This document shows positions 173-60,444 of a DNA stretch of 64,000 nt, one piece after another. The first letter of the stretch is position 1. Each line of letters starts with the position of its first letter. The position numbers and the translations under genes were made by a program. Under the pieces are notes generated by a model, which did no database searches, had not been told where the DNA came from, and saw only the letters and a program-made list of their open reading frames with translations. Origin of the DNA: Schmidtea polychroa. Taxonomy: Eukaryota. The stretch covers positions 26,724,001-26,788,000 of the forward strand of contig CM097885.1 of the NCBI GenBank assembly GCA_044892525.1. The letters are read 5' to 3'.

Positions 173-200
173 TTAATAAATAATATATGAAATCTTAATA

Positions 201-7252: not shown

Positions 7253-7390
7253 CTGTGTACCCATGGCGACGACTATGTTGGTACTGTACACAGTGGCGGA
7301 AAATCAATGAGCAGGTGAGCTCTATTGCTAAAACTATTCCTCATTGTATTTTCCTTACGGGTTCTGGACTGCCGATAGAACGTCTTATAT
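7253..7390 (-). ncRNA. Structured RNA module, divergent subfamily copy C
   Basis: Reverse complement: TTCTATCGGCAGTCC..GAACCC; CAATGAG/CTCATTG stem enclosing AGTTTTA-GCAA-TAGAGCT-CAC; CTGTGTAC-AGTACCAA-CATAG..CCATG-G-GTACACAG. Confidence 0.6.
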
Positions 7391-14239: not shown

Positions 14240-14871
14240 TGTTGGGTTTTCAGTTAATTTAAGTCGGTTACCTCTGACCCTCGTGTCCTTTAAATCAAAA
14301 CAATAAACGACCCAACGTATATTGAAATCAAAATATATTTTCTCTCGATAATACACAATCAATAATAAATAGTCCAACAGTTCGAGTCTGACCGATTCTC
14401 CACTCGGTGTTGATGCTTTGATAAAGATAATATTCACCTTTTATTTCCTTAGGTTCATTTGACCAACGCTTTCCTTTTTCACCCTTTTTATTCTTATTCC
14501 ATCTCTTCTTTTTCCCTAATCTCCTAAATTCGTTTTTACCTTTTCCTAAACTCAGTTTCTTCTTGTCCCTAGCTGAGGCAAAATGCCGGTTTGCTCTGAT
14601 TTTCCCATTCCATATATACTCTTCGAAATCAGAATGACAAATGGTTATTGCCGAACCAATCTCTCACTTGACATTCGCTTCCACATATCTGTTTCGGCTG
14701 TCACCCATAATGGTCCAACGAACAAAGATAATTAATGGCCCGTCCGGCCTTTCTACACGCACTATCTTCTCTATGCTATTTTTCCAATTAATCATTGTGT
14801 CAAGCTAATGGGTCCAAATCTTCTTTCTGTTTACTTTTCTTCTTGTTTACCCAGCTCGGGTTTCCTTCATC
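14240..14871 (-). mobile_element. Truncated LTR, same family as 20067-21086
   Basis: High-identity match to 20067-~20712, starting TGTTGGGTTTT. Confidence 0.85.
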
Positions 14872-18866: not shown

Positions 18867-19105
18867 TGGTGGGTTACAGGTAAATCACATCTTACTCTTT
18901 TGTGGTGTCTCCCACGTAATCCAGAATATTACTGATTCATTTTGCCATTTGACACCCGTTGAGCACTCTACACATGAGTATTCGACGTCGTTAATGTGTA
19001 GCCTGGGTGAATGTTTGTGAAAAGTGAGCATACTCCAGCATACTGTAATCGTAAACCATTCAGGTTTGTTCACGAACTTAATTAGAAGGTCTATGTCCGA
19101 TTTTC
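18867..19105 (-). ncRNA. Structured 3' RNA module, copy D (more decayed)
   Basis: GGTGGGTTACAGGTAA terminus; AGTATGC-TGGA-GTATGCT-CAC hairpin and TCGGACATAGACCTTCTA on the minus strand. Confidence 0.65.
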
Positions 19106-19499
19106 GCTTATCAATTCTCATCGTATCGCCTATCAGGTAATCTACTACTCTCCATTACGAAATTGAAGGAAAAACATTGACATGCAGCGAAAACCAATGC
19201 GGAGAATTATTTGTTAACGAGAATAAAACACTTTTCTATTTTCTCCAAATTAATTTCGACTAGGAGTAGTCATTTAGAAATTCTGAAATGAGCACATTAT
19301 TCTTAATAAAGGGAACAATATGAGAATTTTAATAAAAGATCAAAATAACAACTTATAAAAAATTACGAGAAGAATTACATACTAAATTACATCCACTAAT
19401 TAAAAAACCAGTTAAAGAAATAAGATAGCCTGAACTGAATTTTGGTATAAAGTGTATCGAGTATAAAAGTTTGAATAATTTGAAACAGTTGTTCCTAGT

Positions 19500-19939: not shown

Positions 19940-21190
19940 CACCTAAAAGAAAGTCGGACATAGGGTTTCTAACGGCAATCTGCGAACCCGCTCAAGTGCT
20001 TACCGATTATAGTGGACAAGGTACGCTCATCTTTCGCAAGTACTCACCCACTCGATGCAGTTCCAATGTTGGGTTTTTGGTTAATTTAAGTCGGTTCCCT
20101 CTGACTCCTCGTGTCCTTTAAATCAAAACAATAACGACCCAACGCATATTGAAATAACAAATTCACAACCTCTTCTCATCACTTTACAATTAATAATCAA
20201 AGTTACGTTTGACCGGTTCTCCGCTCGGTGTTGATGCTTTGATAAAGATAATATTCACCTTTTATTCTCTTAGGTTCTCTTGACCAACGTTGTCCTCTTT
20301 TTCTGTTTGATTTGATCCTTTTCACTCTTTTTATTCTTATTCTATCTCTTCTTTTTCCCTAATCTCCTAAATTCGTTTTCGCCTTTTCCTAAACTCGGTT
20401 TCTTCTTACCCTAGCTGAGGCAAAATGCCGATTTGCTCTGATTTTCCCTTTCCTTATATACTCCTCGAAATCGGGATGACAAATGGTTATTGCCGAGCCA
20501 ATCTTTCACTTAACATTTGCTTCCACGTATCTGCTTCGGCTGTCACCCATAATGGTCCAACGAACCAAGATAATTAATGGCTCTTCCGACCTTTCTACAC
20601 GCACTATCTTCTCCTTGCTCTTTTCCAATTAATCATTGTGTCAAGCTAATGGGCCCAAATCTTCCTTCTGTTTACTTTTCTTCTTGTTTACCCAGCTCGG
20701 GTTTCCTTCATCTCTCGGGTTCTCCATTGGCTAGGGTTTCCCATTAGCTCGGGTTTTCTATTAGCCAATTAATTAATTAATTAACATTTTCTGTTTTTAC
20801 ACATTTGAATGCTTTTCGACCCTTCCTTGTTGACCATTAGCTACTCTATACCTGTCCCATTTTCCCAATTCGATTTCGATGATTTTACAATTTATTGATT
20901 TTTCTCGGATTTCCGGATTCTTGCCTTTCGTAATTGCTTTTGGCATTTTCTCATACTGCTTCCATCGTACTTTCCTTTACTATCACTTCCGTGCATGATC
21001 ACGCTTTTATTTGTCTTTTTTCCTTTACTTACTTTTTATTTAACCTAAATTTCATTTCAATTTATTTTAATTTTCGGACCTCAACACCAACGTTGATTAC
21101 TCAACGGGTATCGAGTGATACAACATTCTTTTATTCTGGGTTACGCTGGAAACACCACGAAAGGCTAAAATGGTTATTACCTGTAACCCA
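19940..21190 (+). ncRNA. Structured 3' RNA module, copy E, split by a solo LTR (19940-20066 plus 21087-21190)
   Basis: Removing the LTR and one CCAA restores CTCGATGC-AGTTCCAA-CGTTGA-TTAC-TCAACG-G-GTATCGAG. Confidence 0.75.
20067..21086 (-). mobile_element. Solo LTR (1020 bp)
   Basis: TGTTGGG...CCTCAACA termini; 4-bp TSD CCAA (20063-20066, 21087-21090); TATATAAGG and AATAAA on the minus strand. Confidence 0.9.
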
Positions 21191-21593
21191 TCAATTGTTT
21201 TCATATCTCAATCACCACTGTTGAAATATTGAATCATTTTGTGTAGTCGTAAATTTGTAATCATTTGCATTGATCAATAAAGTTTATATTGTTTGGAATT
21301 CGTAATTATTATCAATCAAGGAATACTTTGGAGTCAGATTAATAATTGTAAATCTCACATTTCAACGACAACCACAATAAATTGATACCCCTAAAATTGT
21401 GAGACCTAGAGGAGCATCTCATCTTCTCCGTTGGATCATTGTTATATGATACACTGATGAGAAAGAATACTGAATAAAGAAAAATATAAACTATTAATAT
21501 TTCCCTTTAAAATATTTCCCCTTTATTACAAAATTTTATAAATTTGTTTAATTATGGATCAACAGTTGATGAAACATAATTAAGGCAAATATC

Positions 21594-23174
21594 ATGTTCA
21601 GTAAAGTTATTGAAAATGAATGTGGAGTCTGTTATTCGGTAATTGAACAGACGAACCAAGTAAAACTTCTACCTTGTAATCATGGCTTATGTTTGGACTG
21701 CATCAAATCATGGGTACTCGAAAATGCAACTTGCCCCTTTGACCGATCGGAAATAATTAATATTTCAGTTTTTGACATCAGAGAAAATGGAGAAATATTG
21801 ATCACAACCACTGAATTAATATATGAGACTCTTTTGAATAACACAAGAAAAGTCATAAAAAAGTTTATGAAAAAAATCATTAAATTAATTGAATTATCAT
21901 CAATAATTCACTTAATAATCGATAAAGCAGTCAAATATTTCAATTATCTAAAAATATTCTACGATGAAAATATTTTACAGAAATTACTCACAGATGATTC
22001 CAAATCAGAAAATGAATCTCTAGAAATTTTTCTTGATAAAATATCTCAATTTCCATATCAACCAATGGATTATTTAGTGGGAAATTTCCAAGAGAAAAAT
22101 TTTAATTTGACCATAATAGTAAAATCAATGAAAAGCTTTGAACTAATCTCGTTGAAATATTTCCCAAAGGATCCAGTAATTTTTCAATATGCGACTGATT
22201 TCATGAATCTATTGGATAGTTTAGCGACTGTTCGGGAATTAGGCAGTCAATACAAAGAGATTATTGGATATTTTAATGATTTCCAAGCCAATCGGGGAAA
22301 TTCCATTTTATCCAATAGATTTTTCGCGAAGCATTTTTTTGACAAAATTGAAACTCTAAATTTGCTCCTTTTCACAACTTGCACTTATCGAGATTTCATT
22401 AAGTCTTTGATTTTGCAAATGTCCATGAAACAACTGAATATTGATTTGATGGATTTATTTGCAGATTCCATAGAGATTTGTTTGATATGCCAAAGGAGAC
22501 TGACAGATGAATTCCAAACGGTTGCCGGATGTAATCATAGATTTTGTAAACTTTGTGATGAGTTTTTCTTTTTGGACTCGATTAATTGTCCATTTCATGT
22601 CAATGTTGACAGAGGACAATTTGATAGTGACATTGAGTGTATCGGAAAAAGAATTCAATCAAAATATGAATTTATTATTGAAGAGTTGTCGAAATTCATT
22701 TTAAATACTTTAAAGTTTATTAAAATCAATCTACCAAATTTGCCCATTCAAAACATATTGCATGTCTTCCAATTATCCTACACTACGTTTTCAAAACAAT
22801 ACGAAATGTGTAATATTGAATATGAGCAGATCTTTCTTCTCTTTTCCATACTCATGCCCTTCCGAAACCGATATCATGGCATTCTTCCACACCATTTTGT
22901 AAAGACAATTGATGAGTTTGATTTCATTCTTGATCTTTTCCAGAATATCATCGAGGTTTGTATGGATAAAATGTTTGAACTTAGTCATTATGAGGGAAAG
23001 CAATTCAAAGAGATTAACAGTACCAAAATCGAAATGGAACCACAGAACTTTTCCAGTATTTTTCGTGACATATGTGAGGACTCTGTAGAGATTTATGAAA
23101 GACTGAAAAAATTAAAAATGAAAAAATCTGTGCTTGAAAATTTGAAGTTAATATCTCAGCTTGAATTTCTTTGA
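21594..23174 (+). CDS. Intronless double RING-finger protein, putative E3 ubiquitin ligase (526 aa)
   Basis: N-terminal CGVC..LLPCNHGLCLDCIKSW..TCPFDR and internal CLIC..GCNHRFCKLC..NCPFH, each followed by a helical region; AATAAA downstream. Confidence 0.85.
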   Translation: MFSKVIENECGVCYSVIEQTNQVKLLPCNHGLCLDCIKSWVLENATCPFDRSEIINISVFDIRENGEILITTTELIYETLLNNTRKVIKKFMKKIIKLIELSSIIHLIIDKAVKYFNYLKIFYDENILQKLLTDDSKSENESLEIFLDKISQFPYQPMDYLVGNFQEKNFNLTIIVKSMKSFELISLKYFPKDPVIFQYATDFMNLLDSLATVRELGSQYKEIIGYFNDFQANRGNSILSNRFFAKHFFDKIETLNLLLFTTCTYRDFIKSLILQMSMKQLNIDLMDLFADSIEICLICQRRLTDEFQTVAGCNHRFCKLCDEFFFLDSINCPFHVNVDRGQFDSDIECIGKRIQSKYEFIIEELSKFILNTLKFIKINLPNLPIQNILHVFQLSYTTFSKQYEMCNIEYEQIFLLFSILMPFRNRYHGILPHHFVKTIDEFDFILDLFQNIIEVCMDKMFELSHYEGKQFKEINSTKIEMEPQNFSSIFRDICEDSVEIYERLKKLKMKKSVLENLKLISQLEFL

Positions 23175-26665: not shown

Positions 26666-28083
26666 AACTTTCTTTTTTTATGTAATATATTTTTGAATAA
26701 ATTAGAATTTTTTATCATCGCCTTTAAATATTATTAATCATTCTTTGTGGTTTAAATCTCTTCGGAAATTATGTGTTATTTATGATTTTATACGGTTTAA
26801 GGTAATTTTCTTATCACTCACTATTGTTGACAGTTAGTTTCTGATGATCAAGATCTACATCTAATTCCGAAAGTCAAAAGTTTCTATAATCTAAAAAAAA
26901 ATCGATAGAATTATAATATAGGAACACACAAACTTATCTGTGTGCAAATATTTAATGTTCCTAAAGTTAAAAGTTTTATTATAGGAATTGAGAAAGTAAC
27001 AGAAAAATAATTTTACATACAAACACAGCACACATAATATAAAATACACGCAAATTTAATGCAGAGTTTTTTATTCCGAAAGTTAAAAGTAATTAACATA
27101 TAGTTAACATATCATTATTTTTAATATATTAAAATTCATGGTGGAAAAAGTTTGGATTTTCAACTGTACTTTGAAAAGGATGACAAAAAATCGTAAGATC
27201 TATTTATAAAATATTTTTGAAGGTAATATTTCTTTAGATTTTTAGATATTTCTTTGAAAACACTTCCTTTTTGCGAAGGTGAATATCTGACAATGTAAGA
27301 TTTATTCATTTGATTACAAATAATTAAAATATTTTACAGCATATCAGACATTTCTTGTCAAACGCTTTTGTGTGAAGGTAACATTTATAATATTCAACAA
27401 GTGCCATCGACATCTTTGGAATTGCAGAAAAAATTTCGAAAATCGTAAATTTTAATGACTTATTTAAAAAAATAATATTTTCACAGAATTTCAGAAAATG
27501 ACAAAATTCGTCTTATCAATGCTGGAGAAAGATGATTACAAAAACTTAAAAAAGTATTTTATCCATATACGCTGCTTCTTTCCTAAATGTCTTAAAAAAA
27601 TTAATGTGTTTGGTGATTACTTTATTTATTCACAGTTAAAATAATATCTAACTTACATTTTATTGAAATAATTCCAAATAAATTCATAAAATGTCATAAA
27701 ATTCCTAAAAAACACCTGAAATTTAATTATCAATATTTTATATTATAAATGCTGACTACAGGTAATATTTAAGAACTTGAATAATGATCTCATAATTATA
27801 TAAGATCAAAATTCAAGTCTTAAAATTTATTTAAATTAAAAAAACTCAATTGTTGAACCATTAATAAAATTGAATAAATAAAGTAGAAATGAAAATAATT
27901 CTCATAAATGGTGAGTCATCCAATGATGAACACACCAACATGTATTATAAAGACTTTTAACTTTCGGAATTAGGTGTATCGTATGACCTTTAACTCATTT
28001 GTTTTATTCACTAGGATTCTTAACTGCTGCCCCCTTTGTTTATTGAATTTAGTCACCACCAAAATTACACTCGGTTTCAAAAG

Positions 28084-28839: not shown

Positions 28840-29759
28840 AAAGTAAAAATTTTAGTAAAGAGTATTTGTGTGTACACCAACTATATTTTCGTTTTCATCA
28901 CTTGTCTCAATTTTCATATTATGATTAATTTTACACAACGTTGCATTTATTAAAAACACTATAATATCAAAAATTCAATAAATTATATTATAAGATACAT
29001 GTGCCAAAATATTTTTGCAGTTACGCCTGCCCATTTATTATAGGATTTCAGAAATGGTAGAAAAAAAAATGAAACATACATACACGATGAGTGCAATTTC
29101 TATAATAAATCAAATATGTAAACAATCGATAAAATACACTACCTAAATAAGATAAACCCATTTTAAAGAAAATATTTGTTGAAATTATTGCTAAAATTCA
29201 TTTACACCATATTAAAAAATATTGTATCCACGGCAACATTTGACTCTTTCCACTTTGTTATGTGGCTCCCATACTTCTAAAGACTATAATCAATTTTTCG
29301 CTCAAAAGCTTGAGGATATTTTCAAAATCTTTATTATTAATTTTTAAATTTAGAATATTTTTTACATTTTCCTAATTCGTTGTTTTTGTGCTTAAATTTG
29401 AGTATATTCATTTTTTGAAGGTTACTGTTTTCACAAGAAATTTTAACACAATCTATCTTAACTACAGAACTCACCAGCCTTATGCAATTACTATTTATTA
29501 AAGTAAGCTTGAATACAGTGGAATCTTGTTTTAGTGTTGTGTTTAAAATAGAGATGGGTTGCCAAATGCAGACTCCAGGTGCAGCGAAACTTAGTGCAAC
29601 TGGTGAAAGATTGGCCGAAATTACGGTAACTATAGGATAGAGTGTGGGACACCCGGGATTATTATCTTTTTTCTTCCCCCCCCCGCTATTATGATTGATG
29701 AAATGAATTGATTGCCAATTTCATAGATTACCACAATGTTATACAATATCTTCTTTCAG

Positions 29760-30211
29760 TGTTCAAACTGATGGAAAATATGCGCCAAGATCGAGAACGG
29801 ACGCCAAACTAGGTCAAAGAGCTTCGAAAAATACTTGTCAAGTTCAAGGGAGGTTGCCGGGAATTGGAAGGCACCTGATTTAGTGCCGCAGAAATGCAAA
29901 AGCGCCTGAAGCTTATCCAACAGCTACAGCTTCAGAGCACCCAAGATCAAACCGAGATATCGGCTCTCTGCCTGCAAATAAGGGGTTTAGAAACGCAGGT
30001 GCGCCAACAAGCGATAGACAAAGACTTATCCGCCCAGATCCAACAATTGGCAGGAATCACAGTCGCATTCAGCGTCTCTGAGCCACCTGTTCAATCAAAA
30101 AAGAAGATCCGACCCGGCAAGGAAGCTCTGGGAGGCTTAGGCAAGCCAAACAAGCAAACATATCAATTTCCAGATTCCTATAAATGGCTAACATTCAAAC
30201 ATTTGTTGTGA
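29760..30211 (+). pseudogene. Coiled-coil/basic ORF of the unclassified element, copy F
   Basis: After TTCTTTCAG: FKLMENMRQDRERTPN*VKELRKILVKFKGGCRELEGT*FSAAEMQKRLKLIQQLQLQSTQDQTEI; two in-frame stops. Confidence 0.75.
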
Positions 30212-30359
30212 CAATTTTCATTATTGTGAAATTTTAAAAATAGTAATGATAACTTAGTATTATGTTTATGTATAGTTACAAATTCATTTATTTGGGTAAT
30301 GAGATGGAAATAAGAAATGAGATCCGGAAACACAATGTAAAATAGAGGGAGTAGAAAAT

Positions 30360-30544
30360 ATCGGACACAGGCCTGGACAATTATAGTATACACAGTATGC
30401 TCACTTTTTGAGAATACTCCAACCCTTGATACATTGCCAATGTTGATCAATCAACGGGTATCAAGTAGTCAAACTTCTATTGTATTCTGGGTTACGCTGG
30501 AGACTGAGCAACAAGGTAAAATGTTTGATTACCTGTAACACACC
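30360..30544 (+). ncRNA. Structured 3' RNA module, copy F (internal deletion in domains 1-2)
   Basis: AGTATAC-ACA-GTATGCT-CAC; CTTGATAC...GTATCAAG; GGGTTACGCTGG..AGGTAA..TTACCTGTAAC. Confidence 0.72.
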
Positions 30545-38069: not shown

Positions 38070-39190
38070 CAGCTAAAATGGTCATGATCCCTAACTGAAC
38101 TAATTAAAGATTTATTGCACAAATAAAATGATGTGCTGTTTTCAAATTCTATTTGTTAGGTGTCGGGAATTATCATTTTCTTCTGATAATTATTATAAAA
38201 ATACTGTGTCTCTATATACTTATCAATTCAGTTTCAGTAAGAAATTGATTAACTCAATCTAAACCGACAAAATATTTATAAATTTTTATGCCGGTAAAAT
38301 TATTAATAAAAAGCAAACCAGCAGAAATGTGCAGATGACGTTGAAAGTACCTGGTGTCCTTATGTAAGATAGCCTCAAAGTCGGTGTAAATAACAAATGG
38401 ATGAGTGACGGTTTTACTCCAATCAGTAAATTCAGGATATTTGTTTTTGGATAATGTGTAGAAGGTAGTACCCAACTGATTTTTATCACAAAGACCCCTA
38501 TGTCTATTAAGAGTCATTTCTAAAACCGTTTAAACACCTAGGACACCACTGGCTACAAATAACAGGAGTGATTGAACTATTCCTTCAATTAAGGAATCTA
38601 TTTAGATCTGTGATTGCGACATAATGATAATTATTCTTTTTTCGATTAATAATAAATTTATAGGTTTTGCTTGCTCCTACTATCTTACTTCGGTAAATTA
38701 TATCAATAAAGGGAAATATCTACATTTACAGTAAAGGCATTAATACTATAAGCGGGATTATGATGTTCAAATTTACTTATATTTGTCAGTTTCATCAGAA
38801 TATCATTAGGGTCAAATTTAATTTGAAAAAGATTGTAGAACGTGGGACGATTTCTATATTGTTTATTTACACTTTCATATTTAATAATTGATAGGAAACT
38901 ATACAGAAAACAAAAGTGGTCATTATTAACTACATTTATAAGACAGCTTAAGTTTTTAATGATTTTGGGATTTCAATAAAGCTATAGCCACTTTCTGAAA
39001 ATTTAGTGAGAACAAAGCTTATGTACTCGATTTTATTGATAGTCCAATTACTACCTTTCTCATTTATTTGTGTTATTTTCTTATTTTAACGATTGATACC
39101 TTCACCAATGAAGGTATCGCTCCAAACTCTGGCGGAATTTGATATTACGAAAGATTGTAACTCATCTTTCTCAAATTTCGCTTTAAGACA
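38070..39190 (-). pseudogene. Maverick/Polinton pPolB N-terminal region, decayed
   Basis: EKGSNW, INVVNNDHFCFLYSFL, YHYVAITDLNR, WCPRCLNGF, PFVIYTDFEAIL, YLCNK..VRDHDHF motifs across frames. Confidence 0.78.
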
Positions 39191-39676
39191 AAAAATTGAA
39201 TTTTACAAGATTTTAATTTATTTATAAAGAATTTTAATTTATTTAATAAAATGTCTAGTACGGAGACAATTTTTAAAGACAAATACGAAACGTCCATCAT
39301 TAAAATAATGTGATTATTATTTAAACCGAAACCTATTTTCTATTATTATTATTATTATTAACAATCAACGATAGTGATTATCTCGGTAACTTTTGGTTTT
39401 TTATTTGATATAAAATTTAATTCTTCATTATTTTTTCTTTTATTCATTTTAATAAAAGTAGAAATTTGATCATTTAATTTATTAACTTGTTCTTTTGGTT
39501 TATTTAATTATTTTCATTTATAATTTTATTATTTTTTTTATTATTGGCGGTATTAGGTATTTTCATATATATTTTTATTATTAGTGTTATTGTTACAAAT
39601 TTTAAGTTCAACTTACGGTCAAATATTTAAAAAATTTTAAATTTGAACCTGACCATACCCTCGAATGTTCCAAGGT

Positions 39677-40300
39677 TCAAAATACAAATAACGCCGTATT
39701 TGTATTTTTATAATTTTTGAAAATTTTATCTTGTTTAAATTTAATTGCTCTAAGTGTTTTTGATATTTTAACCTCTAATTTAATAAATAGTTGCAGAAGC
39801 CTCCAATGAAGAACGTAGTTCCTCTTGGGGCTGTGTGTAAGCAACAGCTTCTCAACTTTCGAACCGGGTACACACATCTTTTCAGCGACAATGGTAAGAT
39901 CATCCAGTTTATCGTGAATTGACGTCGGTATTTCTAAATCCACTTCTATGGTATAACCATAATCAAGCAGATCTAAATCTACCGCTGTGCACTCAACAAT
40001 TATATTATTTAATAAATTGTCATCTGTAACCCATTCAAAGTTATTGCATGGTAATGGTTGACTTAAAGCCCAACCATATAAATTATTTATATCTATGTAA
40101 AGCAATGCGATATCCGGGTCTGTTTTTACAATGTTTATTTACAAAAGTTAATCCGCCACGAATACCGCCCTCGAAAAAGTTATACATCTCCATATCGGTG
40201 AGGAGCTCAATTGGAGAGTTTAATGTTAATAATGCGGAATTCCAAGACATACCTGGAATTCCTAAGAAATTTAATGGCTCTAGCCGGTTATGAGCAATGG
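39677..40300 (-). pseudogene. Maverick/Polinton protein-primed family B DNA polymerase core fragment
   Basis: FLGIPGMSWNSALL, FFEGGIRGGLTFVNKH, LLYIDINNLYGWALSQPLP, GYTIEVDLEIP..IHDKL, NYVLHWRLLQ. Confidence 0.88.
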
Positions 40301-40309
40301 ACTTATCCT

Positions 40310-40775
40310 TCTTTTCAATTAATGATAAATTGATAGGTATGGCTCCTACTATCTTACTACTGTTTATTATATATTCATAACTGCGTCTTCATCAGAAATG
40401 TCTATCAAAGCCTTTTCGTTGTAAGTAAGAACATTAATACTATAATCGGGATATTGTTGTTCAAATTTACCTCTATTTGATAGTTTCATCGGCATATCAT
40501 TAGGATCAAATTTAATATCAGAAAGATCGTAGGAAATGGGACGATTTCTATATTGCCTATTTAAACTGTCATATTTAATAATTGACAAGAAACTATACAA
40601 GAAGCAGAAGTGGTCATTATTAACTACATTTATAAGACAGCTTAAGTTTCTTAGTGATTTTGGGGTTTCAATAAAACTTCTGCCACATTACTTTTGCCAC
40701 TTAACCGGCTTATTTCAGAAAATTTAGAAAAACAAAGCTTGTGTTATCGATTTTATTGCTAGTCCAATTACTACC
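40310..40775 (-). pseudogene. Second copy of the pPolB N-terminal segment (paralogous to ~38650-39060)
   Basis: High nucleotide similarity to 38780-39060. Confidence 0.8.
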
Positions 40776-44260: not shown

Positions 44261-44699
44261 TACATGAGTTTAATTTATCATAATATCAAAATATTTAAAA
44301 CAGAAAATATTAAATAAAACCAAATGGGCCTAAGCTGAGAATTTTAAAAATAAAATTATTGATCATGACTATATTAAAATATTAATCAAGGTTAAAATGG
44401 TTAAGAACTTAATAAAATAGGCTTTAAATAAATATAAATAAATTATGGTTTTAATATTTAATTTCTAATGTAAAGTAAGGAATTCCTTACAGCGATATGA
44501 TGTCTCCTTTCGAAATTTTTTCTAAGAACATTGTTTTCATGATTAACTCTTGATATAATGGTAGCCGATCGCATATTTCTTGGTCCACCATGTAACGGCT
44601 TATAAACTTTGTTGGGTAGTCGACTAGGTCAACAAACGTTCACTCGTTACCAGGGGATGACGGTCAAATCAAAAAAAAACAAACATACACCATTAGTCG

Positions 44700-45294
44700 A
44701 CTGTTAATCAAGAACCCACATGACTATTTTCTCACCATGACACCCATGATTTGCATCATGTTGGTGCTGTGCCATAATGGCGGAATAAGATGAAGCAGGT
44801 GAGCCCCTGCCTTGGGACTACTCCTTCACCCTATCTCGACTTCTCCGTTTCCTGACGGACGATAGAAGGACTTACGTCTTGTTCATTATTCGAATCAAGG
44901 TTATTTGGCTTCATTATTAATTACCCATTCACTTTTACTCGGTTTAACAACACTACAGAAAAACTTCGGAAAAACAGAACTACCACCTCTGCGTAACTGT
45001 TAATCAAGAACCCACATGACTATTTTCTCACCATGACGCCCATGATTTGCATCATGTTGGTGCTGTGCCATAATGGCGGAATAAGATGAAGCAGGTGAGC
45101 CCCTGCCTTGGGACTACTCCTTCACCCTATCTCGACTTCTCCGTTTCCTGACGGACGATAGAAGGACTTACGTCTTGTTCATTATTCGAATCAAAGTTAT
45201 TTGGCTTCATTATTAATTACCCATTCACTTTTACTCGGTTTAACAACACTACAGAAAAACTTCGGAAAAACAGAACTACCACCTCTGCGTAACT
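44700..45294 (-). ncRNA. Tandem 296-bp duplication carrying two divergent-subfamily copies (G, H) of the structured module
   Basis: Units at 44700 and 44996, two differences seen. Minus strand has CCTTCTATCG, AGTCCC..GGGGCT-CAC and ATGGCAC-AGCACCAA-CATGA..TCATG-G-GTGTCAT. Confidence 0.7.
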
Positions 45295-49688: not shown

Positions 49689-49898
49689 ATGTAAAGTGGT
49701 AGTCAAACAGGTGGAGATTTACCATATTTTATCGGGAAACAGTATGGATCTGGCTGGTTGCGAACCATTGGTAGATTTGCACTTCCAATTCTTAAACGTC
49801 TTGGTAGTTTTGGAATGAAAACTGCTAAAGATGTGATAATGAATGATCAAAAAATGACTGATTTCTGAAAACAAATGCCATGGCTGAAATAGGGAAAT
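49689..49898 (+). pseudogene. Maverick small core/cleaved virion protein fragment
   Basis: SQTGGDLPYFIGKQYGSGWLRTIGRFALPILKRLG: QxGG/QxGxG protease-site-like motifs plus an amphipathic helix, directly after the penton fragment. Confidence 0.68.
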
Positions 49899-51800
49899 TA
49901 TTCACAAATGTGAGACCACCACGTATACCACCATTGAAAAAATTGTTTATTTCGATGTCGACTAAAAGCTCTATGGGTTCCCTTAACGTCATGAGTGCCG
50001 ATGCCCAACTCATTCCGGGAATACCAAAGAAATTTAGTGGCTTCAATTTATTGTGCGCTATTGATCTTGCTCGAAACTGCTGGAGTACATCGGCCAGTAA
50101 ATACACGTCCAGCTTTAAATATATTTTCATGTAATCCAGTAAATTTTGACAACCGGTTTCTTCCCAAATTTTCATCTGCTTTCTGATATTCTTCTTGTGT
50201 TACTTTTTCCAAAATCGGTGGCAATTCCGTCGTGTTTTCCAAAATTTCGCTTTAGCTTTTCGCATGATTATAAGGGAAAATCCCTTTTGTTTCTACCAAT
50301 GTTCCACCAAATACTGAACGAGTTAACGGTAATCCACTCAATGTCTTAACCGCCTTTGCCAACGAATCATTGACAAACTGCAAACTGTCAATGAAACGCA
50401 CGGTTAAGTTTTTTATTCTCACCATCAATGATAAAAAATTTTCCGTTGGAATACAATTTAAAGACCAATGTGTAAATTCATTGAGCCCGTATTTCAAAAT
50501 ATGGTGTAAGTCATATCCTTTCAGATTATGAAATACTACCAGTAATAAATATCTTATTTGTCTTGATAAATTGCAGTAAAATGGTCATGATCTCTGATTA
50601 AATATCTTTTATTGCACAGATAACACACTCGCGCCCTATTATATTCGATCAGTTCAGCTGCTGACATTATCATTGTTTTCCTTGCGTTTCTATAATAGTA
50701 TGGCAAAACTACTTGCTGCCCCAGTTGTTCGATTTTTGCCAAAAACTCCACAATACACTGATGAATTGATGATATTGACTCCCAAGTGAAATAATTTATC
50801 AAAAACAGCCCCGCTGCTATTGGTAAATGAATTCGGCGTAAATAACGTATGGTTGAGTGACTGTTTTGGATCAATCACTAAATACCAAATCTTTATTTTG
50901 AGGCATCGTGTACATTGTAGTACCGAGCATATTTTTGCTGCAAATTGCTTTGTGTTTTTTTAAAAGTCATATCTTTTCTAAATCCATTCAGACATGTTTC
51001 GCACCATTTGGACTGAATCCGAACTGGGCAATCTTCGCTCTCATAACAATTCATTAACCACTGCAGATTAGTAACAGCAGTATAATGAAACTTTTCACCT
51101 TCTTCCAACATTAGCAAATAGATCGGTGCTACGCCCTCTACTTTAGTTCGATGTATTATATCCAAATTCGGATGTTAAGAAACGGTTTCCTCATGATTTT
51201 CATCGATGTTCAAAACATTTGTGCAATTTTAACTGAAAACATTGATTGCCAGTCCTGGATTAATTCGCTCGAGTTTCCTTATGTTAGATAACTGCATAGG
51301 AAAATCTTCCTCGTCATACAGCAGTTGATCCATATAATCTGCATAATTCTCAACTCGTTGCCTATTTGTTTGAATTACATCCAAATGTTTAATACAAAGT
51401 ATGCTATAAAGAATGCATAAATTATCTGTTTTTTTAATATTAACTATGTCATGCTTATTAGCTAAAGTCTCTGGTGTCTTCAAGTGTCTATGTCCGCTTA
51501 GTCTACTTATTGGATGATATTTTGTGACAGTGAAAATTATTTCTAACACTTTGTTCACAGTCCAACTGCTTCCCTCAACAGTTCGAACATTTATTTTTTC
51601 GTATAATTTTTTAATAGTTAGCTCAAGAAATGTTTATGAATATTCCGTTGCTTTATTTGAAATCCACGCAGTTTTTGTGCCCCCATCTTTAATAAATTCC
51701 ATATTAACTCCAAATTGAATTTTTGCGTGACCGAGTTTGTTTAAAGCATTTCTCAATGCAAGTAAAATAGGAACTGATAATTCAATGCCTTTTCATATTA
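49899..51800 (-). pseudogene. Maverick/Polinton pPolB (N-terminal, EndoVII-like, exonuclease, start of polymerase), decayed
   Basis: EGSSWTV, DNLCILYSIL, WCETCLNGF, CYLC..RDHDHFT, VVFHNLKGYDLH, RFIDSLQF, KGIFPY, YLKLDVYLLADV, GGIRGGLTFVN. Confidence 0.9.
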
Positions 51801-51944
51801 TATCTTTCAATGTTTAATTTTATTACTCTGTGACCGATTCAAATCATCTTCGATCACTTGATATTTATTACGAGTCATGAAAGAACCCAGAAAATTCAAC
51901 TATGCCTGTTTGCTATACATTAATTGTATACATGATTGTTATTT

Positions 51945-52361
51945 TTAATGAAATATAATTTGCCTTTCACCATCTTCTCCATGGTCTTCCTCACGATCTT
52001 CTCCACCATCTTCTGGCCCATCTTCAGCTCCATCTTCACGGTCTTCCTCATGATCTTCAGCTCCATCTTGAACATTTTCATCGTCATCAGAAATTGTTAT
52101 AACCTCAGTAATTACTATAGGTTCTGGTGCAATAATTTCAGTTTCCTCAGAATTTGTTATAATTTCTTGATCGGAATTAACTGTTTCATTAAATGTTTTT
52201 ATTAATGTTGAAAAAATTTCTTTTTTATTGCTTTTAAAATAGAACAAATGATTTTTATATTGATTATAAAAATCAATATATTCGTTTAAGTTTAGTGTCA
52301 TGCATATGGGACATGTGTAATATTTTTTATTATAGTAAGTTTTACTATAATAATTATCCAT
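51945..52361 (-). CDS. Hypothetical protein with CxxC and acidic repeats, probably a Maverick accessory gene
   Basis: 138-aa ORF (YTCPIC; EDGAEDHEEDREDGAEDGPED) immediately upstream of pPolB on the same strand. Confidence 0.4.
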   Translation of the reverse strand: MDNYYSKTYYNKKYYTCPICMTLNLNEYIDFYNQYKNHLFYFKSNKKEIFSTLIKTFNETVNSDQEIITNSEETEIIAPEPIVITEVITISDDDENVQDGAEDHEEDREDGAEDGPEDGGEDREEDHGEDGERQIIFH

Positions 52362-53502
52362 AGCATCGTGACAACCAGGCCCATGATCTGTCCTTTGACA
52401 ACAATCGGGGTATAGTTGACCTGTGTAAAATATTAGGTTTACAAATATTTTTCATCTTTATTTATAATAATATCTTTAATGACAACTTATAAATTATATT
52501 TTTAAAATTATGAAATAAAATTTTTTAAGTTAATCAGTTGATAACTATTATTAAATTTATTTTCAAAAATATTATTAAAATGTAAATTTTTCCAAATAAA
52601 ATAATTAAAAAATAAATCGATAATTATTTTTATTTTTTTTATAAAAACCTAATAAAATCTAAAATATAGATTACTTGAAAAAAAATATATCGTAGTTATT
52701 AAATAAATTATCCGATCACATATTTCAATTGTAAAACACTAACATTTTTCTTTTTTGTTCTTCCTGCGAGACTTGTTGGATAATTTTTGGTTGGCATTTG
52801 TCGAAATACTGGGCATGTTTGGGTTTTGAATGGCATTGTTCATTAAATGTGTTTTTATATTTGAAATCATATTTGAATTGTGCATAATAATTTGATTGTT
52901 TTCTGAATATATAATAATATTTTGAATAGTAATATTAATTTAATTTACTTTCTTCATCAATATCCACAGACAAAAAATTGGATCGAATAGAAGCGGAAGT
53001 TGAAGCTAAAACATCTAATAGGAAAATATTAATAAAGTTTTAAAAATTAAATTTATTTTACTTTGCTGTTTGTTTCCTAAACGAGCTTTTTTCGGATTCC
53101 CAATGAAAAAGTCACACATTTCCTAAAACAATAATAAATTCAAGTTTAAAAATAAAAATAATAAATTTACTTTTTCGCGAAATCGATTCTCTTTAGTCAT
53201 GAATTGTTGATTGTTCATATTTTGAAATTTTCTAAAAGTGAAATTAAAAGTAATGTTTATACCTAATATCAAAAAAAAAGATTTACTCACCGACCAATCG
53301 AAATTGAGTATTTGGTGAAATGATAAAATTAGAAAAAATTAGAAAGACATGACTACTAAAATTAAACAAGGAAATGACGAGTATTTTTAACAAAGACAAG
53401 ACTAAGTCATCAAATGAATAACAAAATAAATGTGCAATATAAACAAATGAACAAAGACACATAATACATAAAATACATAAAAACGGAGATACATACAAAA
53501 AA

Positions 53503-54210: not shown

Positions 54211-54559
54211 GTGGTGGGTTACAGGTAATCTGAAATGTCTACCTCCTCATGCTGTTTCCAGCGTAACCCAGAATACAATTGACAGAGATGACCTCCCAAT
54301 CGGTGTCCTGTTGGTGTACCTTGGTCTCCAGCTCCTTCACCCTCAGGCGGAGAGCCCCGCAACTCAACCTGGTCCTGAGCACTCTGGAGTTGTAGTTGAG
54401 CAATCTGCTTCATCCGCTTCTTCATTTCTACTGGCGGAAACCAAGTACTTTCGAATTTGTGGCAATGGGCCTTGATTCAAGTCAGCTTGGCCCGGTATTC
54501 ATCCGTCTGATGTTGCGCCCGTTCTCTGTCCGCCCGCATATCTTCTAGGAGTTTTAGCA
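54211..54559 (-). mobile_element. Unclassified element copy I: coiled-coil exon fused by deletion to the terminal RNA domain
   Basis: After TTTTAG: LKLLEDMRADRERAQHQTDEYRAKLT*IKAHCHKFESTWFPPVEMKKRMKQIAQLQLQSAQDQ, then CTGGGTTAC-GCTGGAAACAGC..AGGTA..TACCT-GTAACCCACCAC. Confidence 0.78.
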
Positions 54560-55574
54560 CTAAAACAAAAACAACATCAATATCTTCTCGCATTATCGTC
54601 AAGTGTTCACGCCTTATTACACATAAAAATAATAGCAATTAAATACAAAATATTCTTCATCACATACACTATCTTCTTATCAAAATCTAAAAAGTCAACC
54701 AACTACTTACAACCAACAACTATGTTCTAACAAATTGATCTTTAAAAGAAAATACTCATCACTTGAAAAATTGGATGACAAATTAATTGAACTCAAGGTA
54801 TCAATAACTTGGTAAAAATTGATTAAATTATTGTAAAACTTAAATTATTCAAAACATACTAAATAAAAAAATGTAATTAATGGACAAGAAAGAACATTAA
54901 ATTTGAATCATTAAGGTACTTGCAAGATTTTTAAGATACTGGATAGTAAATAAAAAATACTAATCATTCAAGTTAATATGAATCAACTAAGTTAATAAAT
55001 AAGATCTAGTAGATAATTGATTTAGATTGAATAAATAAATTAAAATAAATTAGTTTTAATTATTTTTTAAAAGTAATACATGTATAGTCAAATCTAAAAA
55101 TCTAAATTATACACAAAATTCAGTATAAATTCATTACAATTATCAAAGTCGTCAATCTACAATAAAAATAATTATCATTAAATTCCAAGAGACTGATAAC
55201 TAATGATAACATCTAACAAACCAGTAAATTCATTTAAATGGCAATAATTGGTATATCAAAGTGAATTCTCCAATAAAATCATCTAAAAAGCATCAAATTT
55301 CCTTGAAATAACTATCCTTAAAGATTGATATTTTAATGATAAGTACCCGTAAAAGATCATATATTCCCCTCAGACTAATAAGATTCCTTAAAATCCTTTT
55401 AAATGACTATAATTATATCTTTAATTCCTATTATCATACATATTTCACTATTGATAAAACCAGTTATAATTAAATTTTTGTTCTAAATGTAAATCACTCT
55501 ATTTGAAATTTAAAATAAATATTACTGTACAATATAACTGACTAGGTCCCATTGAAAGATTAAATTTATCCATT

Positions 55575-56140
55575 TGTTGGGCTAGAACTGACTTCTAGAC
55601 CCAAATTTTCAATTGTGACTGAAATGCGTAAGTACACAGCATGCAAAAAGCAAAAAGTATAGTTAAATATTAAAAACTACACCAAATAAACAATAGTAAT
55701 TAAAGGAAAAAACAACAAAAACCTAAACACAGAAATTAAATAAAATTATACCAAAAGCAAGAGGTTATGCAAAATAGAACTTGAAAATAACCAAATAAAC
55801 ACAGATAAACATAAAACAGACTCGAATAACTTAAAAGACGATAAAAATCGAAAAATTCCATAAAAATGGCGATGACCATCATAAAAGTCACAATAAAATT
55901 TAGGAAAAATAAATAAATTAGTAATAAAAATAAAAAATATTAAAAAGAAATTCATAAAACATCAGTTAAAATAAAAATTAAATTAAAAGTAATATGGAAT
56001 GTTCTGGAACCGTTCCAAATCCATCATGGACGTAAAATTAATGAAAAATAATTAAAAAATAAAAATTTAAAAATAAAAACAAAAATTATGGCACAAAAAT
56101 TGCCATTAAAAATATCAAAATCGCGAAATAAAAAATTCTG
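55575..56140 (+). mobile_element. LTR-like repeat of the TGTTGGGCTAGAAC family
   Basis: Starts TGTTGGGCTAGAACTGA; collinear with 48845-49400. Confidence 0.6.
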
Positions 56141-57339
56141 GAATAAAAAGAATTCGAGTTTGTTTTAATGCATCAATACATACACGTGTACAAAATAGGT
56201 ATATATACTGACACGTTTCAGTCAGAATTAATCATTATTTTATGCCAAAAATTTCTTTTTGTCAACAGGATATCGATAGTAAGTATTATTGTGTCATTTT
56301 TTTTGTGTACTATTATTTGTGTATTATTACTATTAACTCATCTATGCTAAAAGAGATTGTTAACGATTTTATATTTTTGATTTTTCTTAGATTAACTTTT
56401 TGAGCGATGTACGAATTGATATTCCTGCGTCGTTGTTCAGTCCTGCATTCGATTTGGAAAATTTCATAGGGCATGCCAACATGCATTATCTATATTATAT
56501 TAATCGATATTATACAGCTTTTTTTGTTCGGGTCAGTCAAAGGTCGAACTACTTCATGGTCCTGCCATGGAGTTAGGTCGAGGAAACCCTCCGCCTGACT
56601 CTTTGTATTTATTTAAGCTCAACCGTAAATGGTCGACTCAGCACACAACACTAAGGTTTGTGGAAGTGGTCACAGTGGGGCCATGGAAGCAATATTCTTC
56701 CCGACCTTTTACGTAACATACATTTAAATTCAACATTTAAAATCAGTACAACGAAAAATACCCTAAGGTCGATAAATTGAGTAGAACTCATACCTAAATT
56801 GACACAATTATGCAAATCACAGTAATGTAGATGGTTGACCAGTTATGCTTAGATATATGCCGAATTAGGTTTTCGTAACAGTAATTTATAGTAAGCATAG
56901 TAATAGTAAGGATAAAAATATTCGGCATATGTATAAGTAGAACTTAATAGGTCTTGGAATTCCTTTAGTATAAAAGTAGATATTATGATTCTAAAAAATT
57001 AATCTATTAATCGATTAACCTAAGCCCCTACTTAAAATATTTAGAAATGTATAAGCACTTAACTATAATTTTCCCTGCCAATTATGAAATATAAGTTGCG
57101 AATAAGGTTAATATTTTAGACACGAATTATATCGATCCCGAAAATATAACTATGAATGGGTAAATTTCGAGTGTAAGTTATGGATCGGAAATAATGATAT
57201 ATAGAATTTGAGTGTCGGAATATGCTCATAGCTAACAATATATAACCTATATATACGTGGAACTCGCAATTAGTTACGAAATAAACCTGAAAAATCTGGG
57301 AACCTGCGTTGGATAATTCATAAAAGTTGCATAAAATCG

Positions 57340-57815
57340 AAATTATAAAATATAAAGTTATAAGTTGGAAAATCTAAAGTTATAAATCTTAAAAAATAAA
57401 ATCATAAATTATAAAATTTAAAGTTATAAATCCTAAAATATAAAGTTCTAAATCGTGAAGTATAAAGTTATAAATGATAAAATATAAAGTTATAAATTAC
57501 AAAATCAAAAATTATAAATTAGAAAATATAAAGTTATAAATCCTAAAATATAAACTTATAAATCGTAAATGTAGAGTTATAAATGGTAAAAATATATAGT
57601 TACAAATCCTAAAATATAAACTTATAAATCGCAAATGTAAAGTTATAAATGGCAAAATATAAAGTTATAAACTTATAAATCGTAAATGTAAATTCATAAA
57701 TGATAAAACATAAAGTTATAAACTTATAAATCATGAATGTAGAATTATAACTAGTCAAATACCAAGTTATAAATTATAAAAATAACGTTATAAATCGTAA
57801 AATATAAAGCCATAA
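57340..57815. repeat. ~19-bp AT-rich minisatellite (AAAATATAAAGTTATAAAT-like)
   Basis: Many degenerate tandem units. Confidence 0.85.
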
Positions 57816-58158
57816 ACTGAAAAAAATCAAATATTAGGGAGTATAAAACGCACTTTTATCCATCATGAACCATCAAATTGTAAGTTGAAGATAAAATTAT
57901 AAGTTGTACTTACTTATATATGAAATACTTATAAATGTAAACTACAAGATTAATACGATAATCCCCATCCAGGTATAAATATAAATTATAAAGGTTATGA
58001 TTAACTATTAACGGTAACTACAAAATATAAATAACTATAATAGTTTGCCCTTGACATAAAAGTTTTTAGCCATAAATTACAAATAGATAATAATTATAAG
58101 GTCATTATAATATCATGGTTATTATTACTATTATTATTATCATCTTTATTATTATCGC

Positions 58159-58195
<37 letters not shown>

Positions 58196-58783
58196 GTATC
58201 ATTACTAGTATCATTAATATTATTGTTACTATTAATATCAGTAGTCATATATCACTTAGTTATTATTAGTAATGTGGTTATTTGTCGTATATAATTCAGT
58301 TATATATAGTTACCGTACATCAGTGTTATAAAACCAAAATCATTGACTCTCGACTAAGAAGGAGAAGACGAGCTCCAAGAGGTGAACCTCGAGAAGACAG
58401 CGGGGAAAATAACCGCCAAATATGGAGCTGCAAATCAGGGCAGAAAGGGAGGGGGTGCCCCTGGAAGAATTAGAGGAGGCCGAAGTACCCCCGAGAAAGA
58501 GAGGAAGGCCCCGCAAGCATCAATTGTGAACAAAAGCCGACAACTGACGTAGTACAATAACTTCTTATTTAGTGGGTGTGATTTACTTTGGTGTCTTAAT
58601 TAATGATTAAAATTGACTAGGGCTTATTATTAAATGAAGTGTTTTCCTTTTAAATCGAGTTGTAAGTAACAAGTATATCAATGTCCTAGCGACACATTAC
58701 TAGTATTGATTAATAAGTACAATTATTCGTTGTTCCAGCTCTTTTAGTATGTGTAAAATTAATAACACCCTTTATGTTTTCAG

Positions 58784-59253
58784 TGTATAAGTTAATGGAG
58801 AATCTTCGGAAGGATCGGGAGTAGGCCCAACAACGTGCCGACGAACTCCGGGTCCGAGTGGACAAATTGAAAGGAAAATGTCGGGAGTTCGAGGGGACCT
58901 GGTTTAGTCCCGAAGCGATGAAGAAGAAAACAGCCCAGATCCTCCAGCTGCAAACACAGGCCGCTCAGGACCAAATGGAGATCCGCGCCCTGAAATTGCA
59001 GGTGCGGGCGCTCGAAACCGAGCGAAATGAGCAGTTGGTGCAGGTGGCCGTGGCAGGACAAATACGGCCACTGACCGTGGAACTCGCGGCGATATATCCC
59101 CCAGCCGCCGAAAATAAGCCCAAAAGAAAGCGGCTAGGACGGAACATTCGTGAGAAATTAAAGAAGGCCAGGCTAGCCGAGTACGAAAGGCAAGTGACCT
59201 CATCGCAAACGTCTACGACGGGACTAACCGGTCCTACCAACCGGCCAAGTTGA
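58784..59253 (+). pseudogene. Coiled-coil/basic ORF of the unclassified element, best copy J (one TAG at 58822-58824)
   Basis: TTTTCAG acceptor (AG 58782-58783), ATG at 58795. MENLRKDRE*AQQRADELRVRVDKLKGKCREFEGTWFSPEAM...heptad repeats...KPKRKRLGRNIREKLKKARL. GC-rich island. Confidence 0.8.
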
Positions 59254-59438
59254 ACTTTTATTCCGTGTTATGTATTTCTGTAGTGTGTTTTATATACCTT
59301 GTAGTACTAAAATAATATTTCTTTTGCTTGTTGTTAAAATAATACATATTTTGTAGCGTTAAAATAATGTCTGATATATTTTATAATTGCTTGAGAAAGG
59401 AGAATTTGCGCATAAAGTTGGGAAAACAATTTTGATAA

Positions 59439-59667
59439 GGGACCTGAGAAATCGGACACATACCTTCTATCGGTAGTCCGTGAACCCACGGAGTGCTCGA
59501 CAATTACAGTGCAAGTAGTGCGCTCACTTTTTGCGAGCACTCACTCTCTTGATACAGTACCAACGTTGATCGTTCAACGGGTATCAAGCGGTAAACAATG
59601 TTGCATGTTGGGTTACGCTGGTAACAGCACTAAAGAGCAAAATATTTGACCACCAGTAACCCACCAC
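59439..59667 (+). ncRNA. Structured 3' RNA module, reference copy J
   Basis: D1 CGGAC-ACA-TACC-TTCTATC-GGTA-GTCCG; D2 GAGTGCTCG..AGTGC..GCGCT-CAC..CGAGCACTC; D3 CTTGATAC-AGTACCAA-CGTTGA..TCAACG-G-GTATCAAG; D4 GGGTTAC-GCTG-GTAA-CAGC..GTAACCC; AATAAA at 59672. Confidence 0.78.
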
Positions 59668-60444
59668 ATTCAATAAAATATATTTCTTCAAATGATCATT
59701 TTTTACCGATATTCAAACGATTTAATTACTAATTAAAATCAATCGATAGATTTCTTCCAATAAAGATCAATTTTATTTAGTTGTCGATGTTTTAAGTCCA
59801 TATTTTTCAACTTTTGTCATTCTCCGCCTAAATAAAGATAAAAATAATTTAAAGTTGAAGTCAATCCCAATTATCTGTAAAGATTTCATTGTCAAAACCA
59901 AGTAAATCGATCATTATCCCTACTTAATAAAACATTGTTCTAAATTAATTTACTGTGCATTAATCACAACCTAATAAAACGATATAATTTCATATTATTA
60001 TTGATTCATAACTGACTTATGTATTGGAATTTCCCTTAAAACATTGATATTTTACCAACATCATCCTTTAAAAATCATATATTCCCACCTTATACGATCC
60101 CTCATTAAATCTAACCGATTATAACCCCTTTAAAGATCATATATTCCCATCTTCACCGATCTCTCATTAAACCCAACCGACTATTTTCCCATCTAAACCG
60201 ATCTCTCATTATATCTAATCGATAATATCCCATCTTAACCGATCTCTCAGCAAATATTTCAGTCAACATGAAATTCTTAGAAAATTATTCAATATCCTCA
60301 TCAAAATTTATCCTATCACTTGATTATTGTAAAAACTCTAATTATTAACCTCATTGAAAATAATTTTTATTTAATATTAAAAAAACATCCAATTATCAAG
60401 AAATTAATTAAATTTATCTTAGAATTAGCATTAAATTATTAAAA

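Follow-up and report, generated by a model that had tools for sequence, protein, structure and literature searches.

The DNA analysed here, a 64,000-nucleotide stretch of the Schmidtea polychroa genome (henceforth the window), is AT-rich and abundant in transposon remnants. It holds two intronless copies of ATE1 (arginyl-tRNA-protein transferase; 1969-3411 and 16657-18087, minus strand), which share 93% DNA identity, have open frames and diverge most at their N-termini; a 526-aa intronless gene with two RING fingers (21594-23174, plus strand); broken remnants of Polinton/Maverick-type DNA polymerase B (38254-40687 and 49825-52451, minus strand); and a match to the precursor of mir-753, a microRNA of planarians, above the gathering score (27766-27827, minus strand). 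The feature under study is a structured module at the 3' end of a solo LTR, repeated elsewhere in the window (Table 1). It consists of a core of three domains (D1, D2 and D3), common to five LTR lineages (A to E), and a terminal domain (D4) which is lineage-specific. We show that this repeated module forms the final ~230 nt of LTRs belonging to Burro-type giant gypsy-like elements and their shorter derivatives.

Table 1. Module copies, LTR features and RNA domains in the window.
Feature	Position	Strand	Detail
Solo LTR with the focal module, 4,092 bp	55575-59666	+	starts TGTTGGG, ends CCCACCA
Left 4-bp target-site duplication	55571-55574	+	CATT
Right 4-bp target-site duplication	59667-59670	+	CATT
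Focal module copy	59439-59666	+	3' end of solo LTR
D1	59453-59480	+	short basal stem, asymmetric loop, CC/GG stem
D1 apical loop	59465-59471	+	7 nt, UUCUAUC-type
D2	59491-59542	+	long stem, conserved 4x6 internal loop, 6-bp apical hairpin
D3	59548-59588	+	8-bp outer stem, 8x1 internal loop, inner stem-loop
D4, lineage-A terminal domain	59610-59662	+	GGG-led stem pairs with CCC of LTR end; GNRA-capped arm
Lineage-A copy, LTR end	200-433	-	BLAST/nhmmer
Lineage-A copy, LTR end	6617-6849	-	BLAST/nhmmer
Lineage-C core D1-D3	7246-7401	-	nhmmer, motif scan, model R1
Lineage-A copy, longer D3 apex	18867-19112	-	BLAST/nhmmer
Lineage-A copy, split in D3 loop	19942-21193 (19942-20071 plus 21082-21193)	+	BLAST/nhmmer
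Lineage-A copy, part of D1 deleted	30347-30544	+	BLAST/nhmmer; related LTR ORF upstream, 29738-30211
Lineage-B LTR end	44610-45291	-	ends CCCAACA at 44610; 296-nt tandem duplication
D4 only	54212-54281	-	joined to LTR ORF remnant 54354-54545 via internal deletion
Small LTR ORF, 3' remnant	58422-58529	+	AT-hook-like basic motif at end; tblastn; whole in L042
LTR coiled-coil-like protein, basic tail	58723-59253	+	in-frame stop near 58822

Module copies and LTR boundaries

The initial annotation had described a multi-copy module of about 230 nt, and every window copy listed there was recovered by BLAST/nhmmer or, for the diverged ones, by nhmmer, a motif scan and the model R1. Specifically, a 229-nt query retrieved 7 further pieces within the window, and a three-motif pattern gave 4 window matches against 0.00 expected (100 shuffles). 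The lineage-B duplication holds D1-D3 twice (cores at 45025-45184 and 44729-44888, minus strand), and these two cores and the lineage-C one are in the training set of the model R1 that also finds them. The split copy, previously placed at 19940-21190, is real, with the correction that its split is caused by a nested 1-kb LTR (20067-21086) with a CCAA duplication. This nested LTR and a second stretch (14240-14871), both on the plus strand, represent a ~1-kb LTR-like family that starts with TGTTGGG and has no core match.

When the 781-Mb assembly was searched, a two-motif pattern (D2 and D3 motifs) gave 5,175 genomic matches against 0 for the controls. Another degenerate core, with most of D2 deleted, was found by model R1 at L020:2178-2286 (plus strand; E 4e-5). 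The strict module pattern had 0 matches in viral contigs; looser patterns in viral and metagenome contigs produced chance matches only, among the matches listed (80 of 120 and 80 of 119 loci scored), and on those listed loci model R1 found nothing under E 0.65.

The solo LTR of the window aligns at both ends with a 4,080-bp solo LTR at locus L042 (88-89% identity), and LTR termini are of the TG..CA type with short inverted ends (TGTTGGG ... CCCA(C/A)CA). Similarity among the 30 best genomic copies ends abruptly past CCCACCA. Across twenty 10-kb loci, the shared LTR start TGTTGGG lay 4.1-6 kb upstream of the end (8.0-8.2 kb in two loci, with inserts), and a 5' end was recognisable in 18 of the 20. 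A perfect 4-bp target-site duplication flanked 14 of these 20 long loci (L035 and L036 being one insertion counted twice), was absent from 4, and the other 2 had no recognisable start. Same-strand core pairs 13-36 kb apart, read by eye, correspond to two direct LTRs around an internal region, and internal samples from three loci (L058, L059 and L040) overlap as a two-LTR layout expects.

No polypurine tract was found before TGTTGGG in the single 3' LTR seen (L040, from a probably non-autonomous family); 7 nt ahead of this LTR there are a small hairpin and a G/C palindrome (L040:5945-6000, minus strand). These elements, whose primer-binding site is separated from the 5' LTR by 7-8 nt, may depart from the usual modes of plus-strand priming and end processing. 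At loci L001-L030, a module with 93-96% identity follows at least four distinct LTR bodies, a pattern pointing to frequent recombination near the R/U5 region.

Fold of the core and covariation of its stems

Loop sizes in the core are fixed, namely 7 nt at the D1 apex (6 in lineage D), 4x6 in D2 (the 3' side beginning with CAC, 59525-59527) and 8x1 in D3, where the internal loop of the focal copy is AGNACCAA/G (59556-59563 and 59580). The loop motifs had been described as nearly constant, and this is true of the three loops with one exception: the third base of AGYACCAAC is free, and 232 further genomic matches, apparent LTR pairs included, have a purine (A or G) at this position. The initial annotation had also proposed four domains; D1-D3 are present in all families, but the D4 junction with its GNRA hairpin is limited to lineage A, to which the focal copy belongs, and even there its third arm is variable or deleted. 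Lineages B and D close with longer, different terminal domains, and pairing of GGG with the CCC of the LTR end is found in A, B and D. The core sits 100-150 nt from the LTR end, at a near-fixed distance to the primer-binding site (PBS). Single-stranded columns showed no conserved mutual pairing of three bases or longer, and neither a pseudoknot nor a palindromic loop was seen. RNAalifold preferred a different D3 register, in which GYACC pairs with the 3' arm; this register was rejected because the third base is free in amplified subfamilies and lineage D is unable to form it.

Covariation was assessed on an alignment of 19 cores from the five lineages (9 A, 5 B, 3 C, 1 D and 1 E), which left out near-identical young copies and four partial copies. 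Lineage representatives are 46-59% identical, except for C and E (72%). Helix registers were anchored on the loops by eye, with one lineage-specific offset in D1, and the D3 3' arm of lineages D and E was placed manually. Each of the D2 and D3 stem variants quoted in the initial annotation is present in the sequences, and 455 of the 494 anchored stem cells pair. Pairing of each stem with its own arm ranged from 0.87 to 0.95, compared to 0.45-0.86 when arms were swapped between lineages (D2 outer 0.45, D3 outer 0.63, D2 inner 0.71, D3 inner 0.72); D1 was barely affected by the swap (0.83-0.86), since its stems are conserved in sequence. Slid registers reduced pairing to 0.31-0.39. For the five representatives, 120 of 130 pairs formed, against 95.0 +/- 3.5 (maximum 109) in 20,000 shuffles that ignore relatedness. 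A 15-pair count, likewise ignoring relatedness, gave 93% paired cells and 45 double-changed cells against 18.8 in shuffles. The shuffles were not beaten in two of the five measures, namely how many pairs show a double change (80/500) and how many pair types occur (415/500).

The focal copy (235 nt) folded better than shuffles on either strand, with z = -3.09 for plus and z = -2.28 for minus. Along the LTR, the 160-nt segments covering the core reached z of -4.1 and -4.7; among 11 other LTR segments one reached -3.8 (inside the LTR ORF) and one -1.68, the rest being above -1. The former marks a second well-folding stretch, at 58775-58934, inside the LTR ORF start. Compensatory change across lineages supports the earlier suggestion of an RNA selected for structure, and the lineage comparisons show D1-D3 stems kept by such change, with three fixed loops, across five LTR lineages. 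The G-T wobbles, which had been used to argue for one strand, turned out to be a modest guide (40 G-U against 19 A-C/C-A cells, with 14 of the G-U cells coming from one conserved pair); the PBS and the ORFs are a firmer guide to the strand.

Element class and place of the core in the transcript

In 5' LTRs, the module end is followed, after 7-8 nt, by an 18-nt PBS for tRNA-Pro(UGG). We found the PBS after the module in 2 of the 30 best copies, both continuing into shared sequence (8-nt gap), as well as in lineage D and in a 26.3-kb-spaced element (G000:C1:260940/287257), in which the LTR end and the same PBS lie 140-150 nt past the upstream core. Genome-wide, the pattern of LTR end plus PBS had 557 matches against 0 for a reversed control; seven of these sites fall in the first 17 Mb, and in 6 of them a core match precedes the site by 89-145 nt. 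The complement to tRNA-Pro(UGG) spans all 18 nt in locus L049 and 17 of 18 in L026 and L030, and the primer was identical, tRNA-Pro(UGG), in all families checked. Genes for this tRNA form a tandem array with a 475-bp period (G000:C1:130901009-130948091; 1,047 pattern matches genome-wide), many copies of which carry a change in the T-stem.

On the other side of the core, six of 10 copies, drawn from different subfamilies, have AATAAA 120-195 nt upstream of the D1 loop, compared with 0.69 expected for this bin, which was selected after viewing the data; four other bins contain it in 0-1 copies. The exact hexamer is missing in four of the ten (the focal copy, C, D and a further A copy). If AATAAA serves as an ordinary poly(A) signal, the core falls in U5, a location which we consider probable; a location in R is possible but distinctly less so, and one in U3 is improbable.

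Burro elements are, by the available text, gypsy-like, longer than 30 kb and present in thousands of copies, have env homology (PMC6431247), and are expressed and PIWI-repressed, with de-repression in smedwi-2 RNAi animals (PMC8532177). The elements studied here share with Burro/GYPSM1, as the available text presents them, thousands of copies, multi-kb LTRs and lengths of about 30 kb; module pairs 24-36 kb apart (D-like lineages and A) plus one LTR of 4-6 kb give such a total. What is available of the two papers concerns proteins only and does not mention LTR RNA structure, PBS or LTR ORF (PMC6431247, PMC8532177). A difference from Burro is that the full copies nearest to the focal LTR, a young family, have ~10.7 kb between their LTRs and appear to be without pol. 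About 6.5 kb of this interior was seen across two copies, and comprises a non-coding start, a Gag-like frame and a 490-aa frame. Neither of the two remaining gaps (2.4 and 2.0 kb) could accommodate pol, which makes the family probably non-autonomous. The Gag-like frame had no Pfam or PDB match; Atlas leads were DUF4939 (19% of a cluster) and DUF7041, and the frame in L059 has a possible resemblance to the start of a gypsy capsid. The 490-aa frame (L040:8123-9592, minus strand) shows by eye an apparent signal peptide and membrane segment, with no Pfam family over the cut-off; it is possibly an env-like or other accessory protein. A search for RVT_1 gave no link to module pairs among the 150 candidates listed out of 12,744.

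Two small proteins are encoded in the LTR itself, upstream of the module (58422-59253 in the window; L042:5464-6602, minus strand). The AT-hook-like ORF matches Pfam AT_hook in its L042 copy with E 0.065, under the cut-off. The coiled-coil-like protein has a Lys/Arg-rich basic tail and, in lineages A, B and D, relatives located 5' of the module; it had no Pfam family over the cut-off and 3 unnamed relatives in 1.84 billion proteins. When the LTR ORF was compared with 126 candidates none scored, and no viral locus matched. By tblastn the ORF was absent from the lineage-A LTRs L031-L036, L038-L041 and L043-L050.

Candidate functions of the core

The core may be a cis-acting signal of the 5' leader, involved in packaging and in primer-tRNA/RT initiation, a proposal which we regard as having about an even chance of being right. 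With the poly(A) site just upstream, the core would lie in U5 and thus be present once per genomic RNA, at the 5' end beside the PBS. It would there fold into a scaffold recognised by Gag nucleocapsid and RT, and this recognition could lead to RNA packaging, the setting-up of primer annealing and minus-strand initiation, with the terminal stem holding the integrase attachment end next to the PBS. An RT-recognition or packaging signal had been among the original suggestions; the position of the core, flanked by a likely poly(A) signal on one side and the tRNA-Pro PBS on the other, fits, and we keep this as a candidate role. The scaffold reading is favoured by analogy with retroviruses and Ty elements, and by retention of the core in the derivative with the ~10.7-kb interior, where no room was seen for pol, as would befit a cis signal served by helper proteins.

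Regarding these analogies, sequences upstream of the HIV-1 PBS pair with the anticodon loop, anticodon stem and T arm of the primer, according to the available text of PMC11251516. Likeness to the HIV-1 U5/PBS region (A-rich loop, C-rich region and PAS) seems to be one of layout rather than of sequence or fold, and lies in structured RNA upstream of an 18-nt PBS and in a short exposed motif that here could pair with the primer anticodon loop, a proposed contact; by contrast, the motif here sits inside an internal loop (8x1) that is 100-150 nt away from the LTR end, and the primer is tRNA-Pro(UGG). For Ty1 and Ty3, the accessible parts of the literature describe extra D-arm and T-arm primer contacts and a structured 5' end involved in primer packaging, initiation and Gag binding (PMC5371799, PMC4974528, PMC11381356). 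In those elements (Ty1 5' pseudoknot, CYC5/CYC3) the RNA ends interact with Gag and the primer and are required in cis, as is proposed here, but the same texts describe split PBSs and a pseudoknot, whereas here there is a full 18-mer PBS and no pseudoknot was seen.

The weakest step of the proposed mechanism is a second primer contact made by ACCAA of D3, which could pair with the anticodon UUGG (4 bp) or with UGGUCU of the D-arm (6 bp, with the free third base bulged). CCAA arises by chance in 60/840 and 60/280 shuffles of the two D3 loop variants, and the best-energy register between D3 loop and tRNA is equalled by 20/840 and 7/280 shuffles of the 8-mer and by 258/2,520 and 52/630 shuffles of the 9-mer. 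That best-energy register (GYACC with tRNA positions 36-40) was itself rejected, as the third loop base is free in amplified subfamilies. A full 8-nt D-arm complement had 0 matches among tRNA-Pro genes, the loops of D1 and D2 showed no tRNA complement above chance, and UUGG likewise occurs where the PBS and U3 begin. At 100-150 nt from the LTR end, the core is further out than the A-rich loop of HIV is from its PBS.

We also considered, as a rather unlikely possibility, that the core is a T-box-like tRNA reader, i.e., that it achieves RNA-only capture of its own primer tRNA-Pro(UGG). The D3 internal loop would then display the proline codon CCA plus A to the anticodon loop of the tRNA, the UUCUAUC loop of D1 would act as a T-loop touching the tRNA elbow, with D2 as a spacer, and genomic RNA would select and hold its primer before the 3' end passes to the PBS. 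T-box Stem I is bacterial, its codon is preceded by GAA, on the 3' strand of an S-turn, and it has a K-turn and interdigitated T-loops. The likeness consists of an internal loop in which AGUA-like bases adjoin a codon plus A for a single tRNA, and of the 7-nt UUC-led loop, which resembles a T-loop. To our knowledge, an RNA-only primer-capture device is not known in eukaryotic mobile elements. A separate idea, that of a tRNA-like 3' end (7-bp stem plus ACCA), was dropped, given that ACCA is the LTR attachment end and differs in other lineages; it is also contradicted by the RNA continuing into the PBS.

Comparison with known RNA families bears on several of these readings. At the gathering score, Rfam (15) matched nothing in the window except mir-753, outside the module, and over 9 loci at E <= 10 there was nothing relevant over the module (best E 8.7); models for hammerhead, twister, twister-sister, pistol, hatchet, hairpin, SECIS, T-box and IRES families were without match.

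Proteins typically bind at large asymmetric loops set on stable stems, and the core could instead be a TAR/Rex-response-type element, whose fixed loops would bind a basic LTR-encoded (or host) protein and so boost elongation or the export of unspliced RNA; we consider this unlikely, but give it appreciable weight. The coiled-coil-like ORF with its Lys/Arg-rich tail could supply the partner in lineages A, B and D, where it lies upstream of the core. HTLV RXREs are, by the available text, stem-loops of 226-254 nt in U3/R or R/U5 with an arginine-rich protein partner (PMC3504254), resembling the ~230-250 nt of structured LTR RNA and the basic element-encoded protein available here; in RXRE-1, according to the same text, a stem-loop spans the distance between the poly(A) signal and the poly(A) site, whereas here there are three separate domains with fixed internal loops. 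However, the most abundant young lineage-A LTRs retain the core without the ORF (supply in trans being possible), no similarity of the LTR protein to Rev, Rex or Tat was found, and the distance from core to PBS is near-fixed. The HTLV-1 precedent (PMC3504254, available text) extends to an improbable scenario in which the core lies in R and aids 3'-end formation or the first strand transfer, its fold bringing AATAAA of U3 to a distant cleavage site. The lineage-B duplication starts 8 nt past AATAAA (28 nt past the start of TATTAAA) and covers D1-D3, as might be expected if aberrant strand transfer duplicated exactly R, and none of the four copies with a known end has AATAAA between D3 and the LTR end. 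The duplication is nevertheless a single event whose ends share AG(T) microhomology, so that slippage would explain it as well; the separate D1-D3 hairpins would leave the 100-170 nt between hexamer and core unfolded, and a G+T fraction of 0.5-0.7 right after AATAAA is compatible with ordinary local cleavage.

Hammerheads define RNA ends in retrozyme LTRs and Penelope-like elements, and fixed loops on covarying stems could likewise belong to a new self-cleaving ribozyme defining RNA ends, as the initial annotation had proposed; on the present evidence this is very improbable. HDV-like ribozymes are nested double pseudoknots with a 7-bp P1, P2 and P1.1, and their P3 of 3 bp and L3 of 7-8 nt starting U-(U/C)-C are resembled by the D1 apex (2-3 bp, 7-nt loop starting UUC). 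Set against this consensus, D1 has 2 firm pairs with a flexible third, and its loop is without the usual G near the end. An HDV-like fold was rejected: the basal stem has 3-5 bp, and the 4-5 nt between basal stem and apex are without a covarying partner. Hammerheads in other giant retroelements lend the ribozyme a precedent (PMC6431247, available text), but neither the window, at the gathering score, nor the 9 loci, at E <= 10, yielded an Rfam ribozyme, and, if the core is in U5, a cut would strip cap and R from the PBS-bearing RNA and presumably be harmful. Control of leader translation (IRES-like or ribosome-shunting) for a very long polyprotein has a similarly slim chance; it would suit a structured leader and the stretch of at least 1.5 kb after the PBS that has no sense ORF of 70 aa or more in both copies seen, but any Gag start is 1.5 kb or more away from the core, the IRES families in Rfam gave no match, and no pseudoknot was found. 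Finally, the core might have no RNA-level function at all, its likeness being due to descent, its motifs being DNA elements (promoter or integrase sites) and its pairing a by-product. Many copies are indeed recent and not independent, the pairing controls ignore phylogeny, two covariation measures stay within shuffles and registers were set by eye. We still hold this to be highly improbable, since lineages about 50% identical exchange stem sequences while pairing and loop sizes stay, and nine of the 11 other 160-nt LTR segments have z above -1.7, compared with -4.1 and -4.7 for the core.

The initial annotation's claim of novelty stands with regard to Rfam, but only in part with regard to transposon ends, as the module is the terminus of a described class, the Burro LTRs. 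Searches of the published literature turned up no description of this structure; the original Burro description, its supplements and Repbase/Dfam may note the LTR ends. The structured motif is real and undescribed, probably an LTR leader cis element in a known element class, for which analogy suggests the functions weighed above. Well-mapped structured cis signals are available for a few LTR elements only (HIV-1, HTLV, Ty1 and Ty3). The conserved fold is not evidence for a new ribozyme; it offers a direct test of RNA-level primer capture. It is also a sensitive marker for annotating all Burro-type LTRs, non-autonomous ones included. A compact fold that covaries across roughly half-identical LTR families, and of which an abundant, expressed class of elements in a regeneration model animal carries over 5,000 copies, constitutes a natural mutagenesis set for RNA and primer recognition by giant env-bearing gypsy elements.
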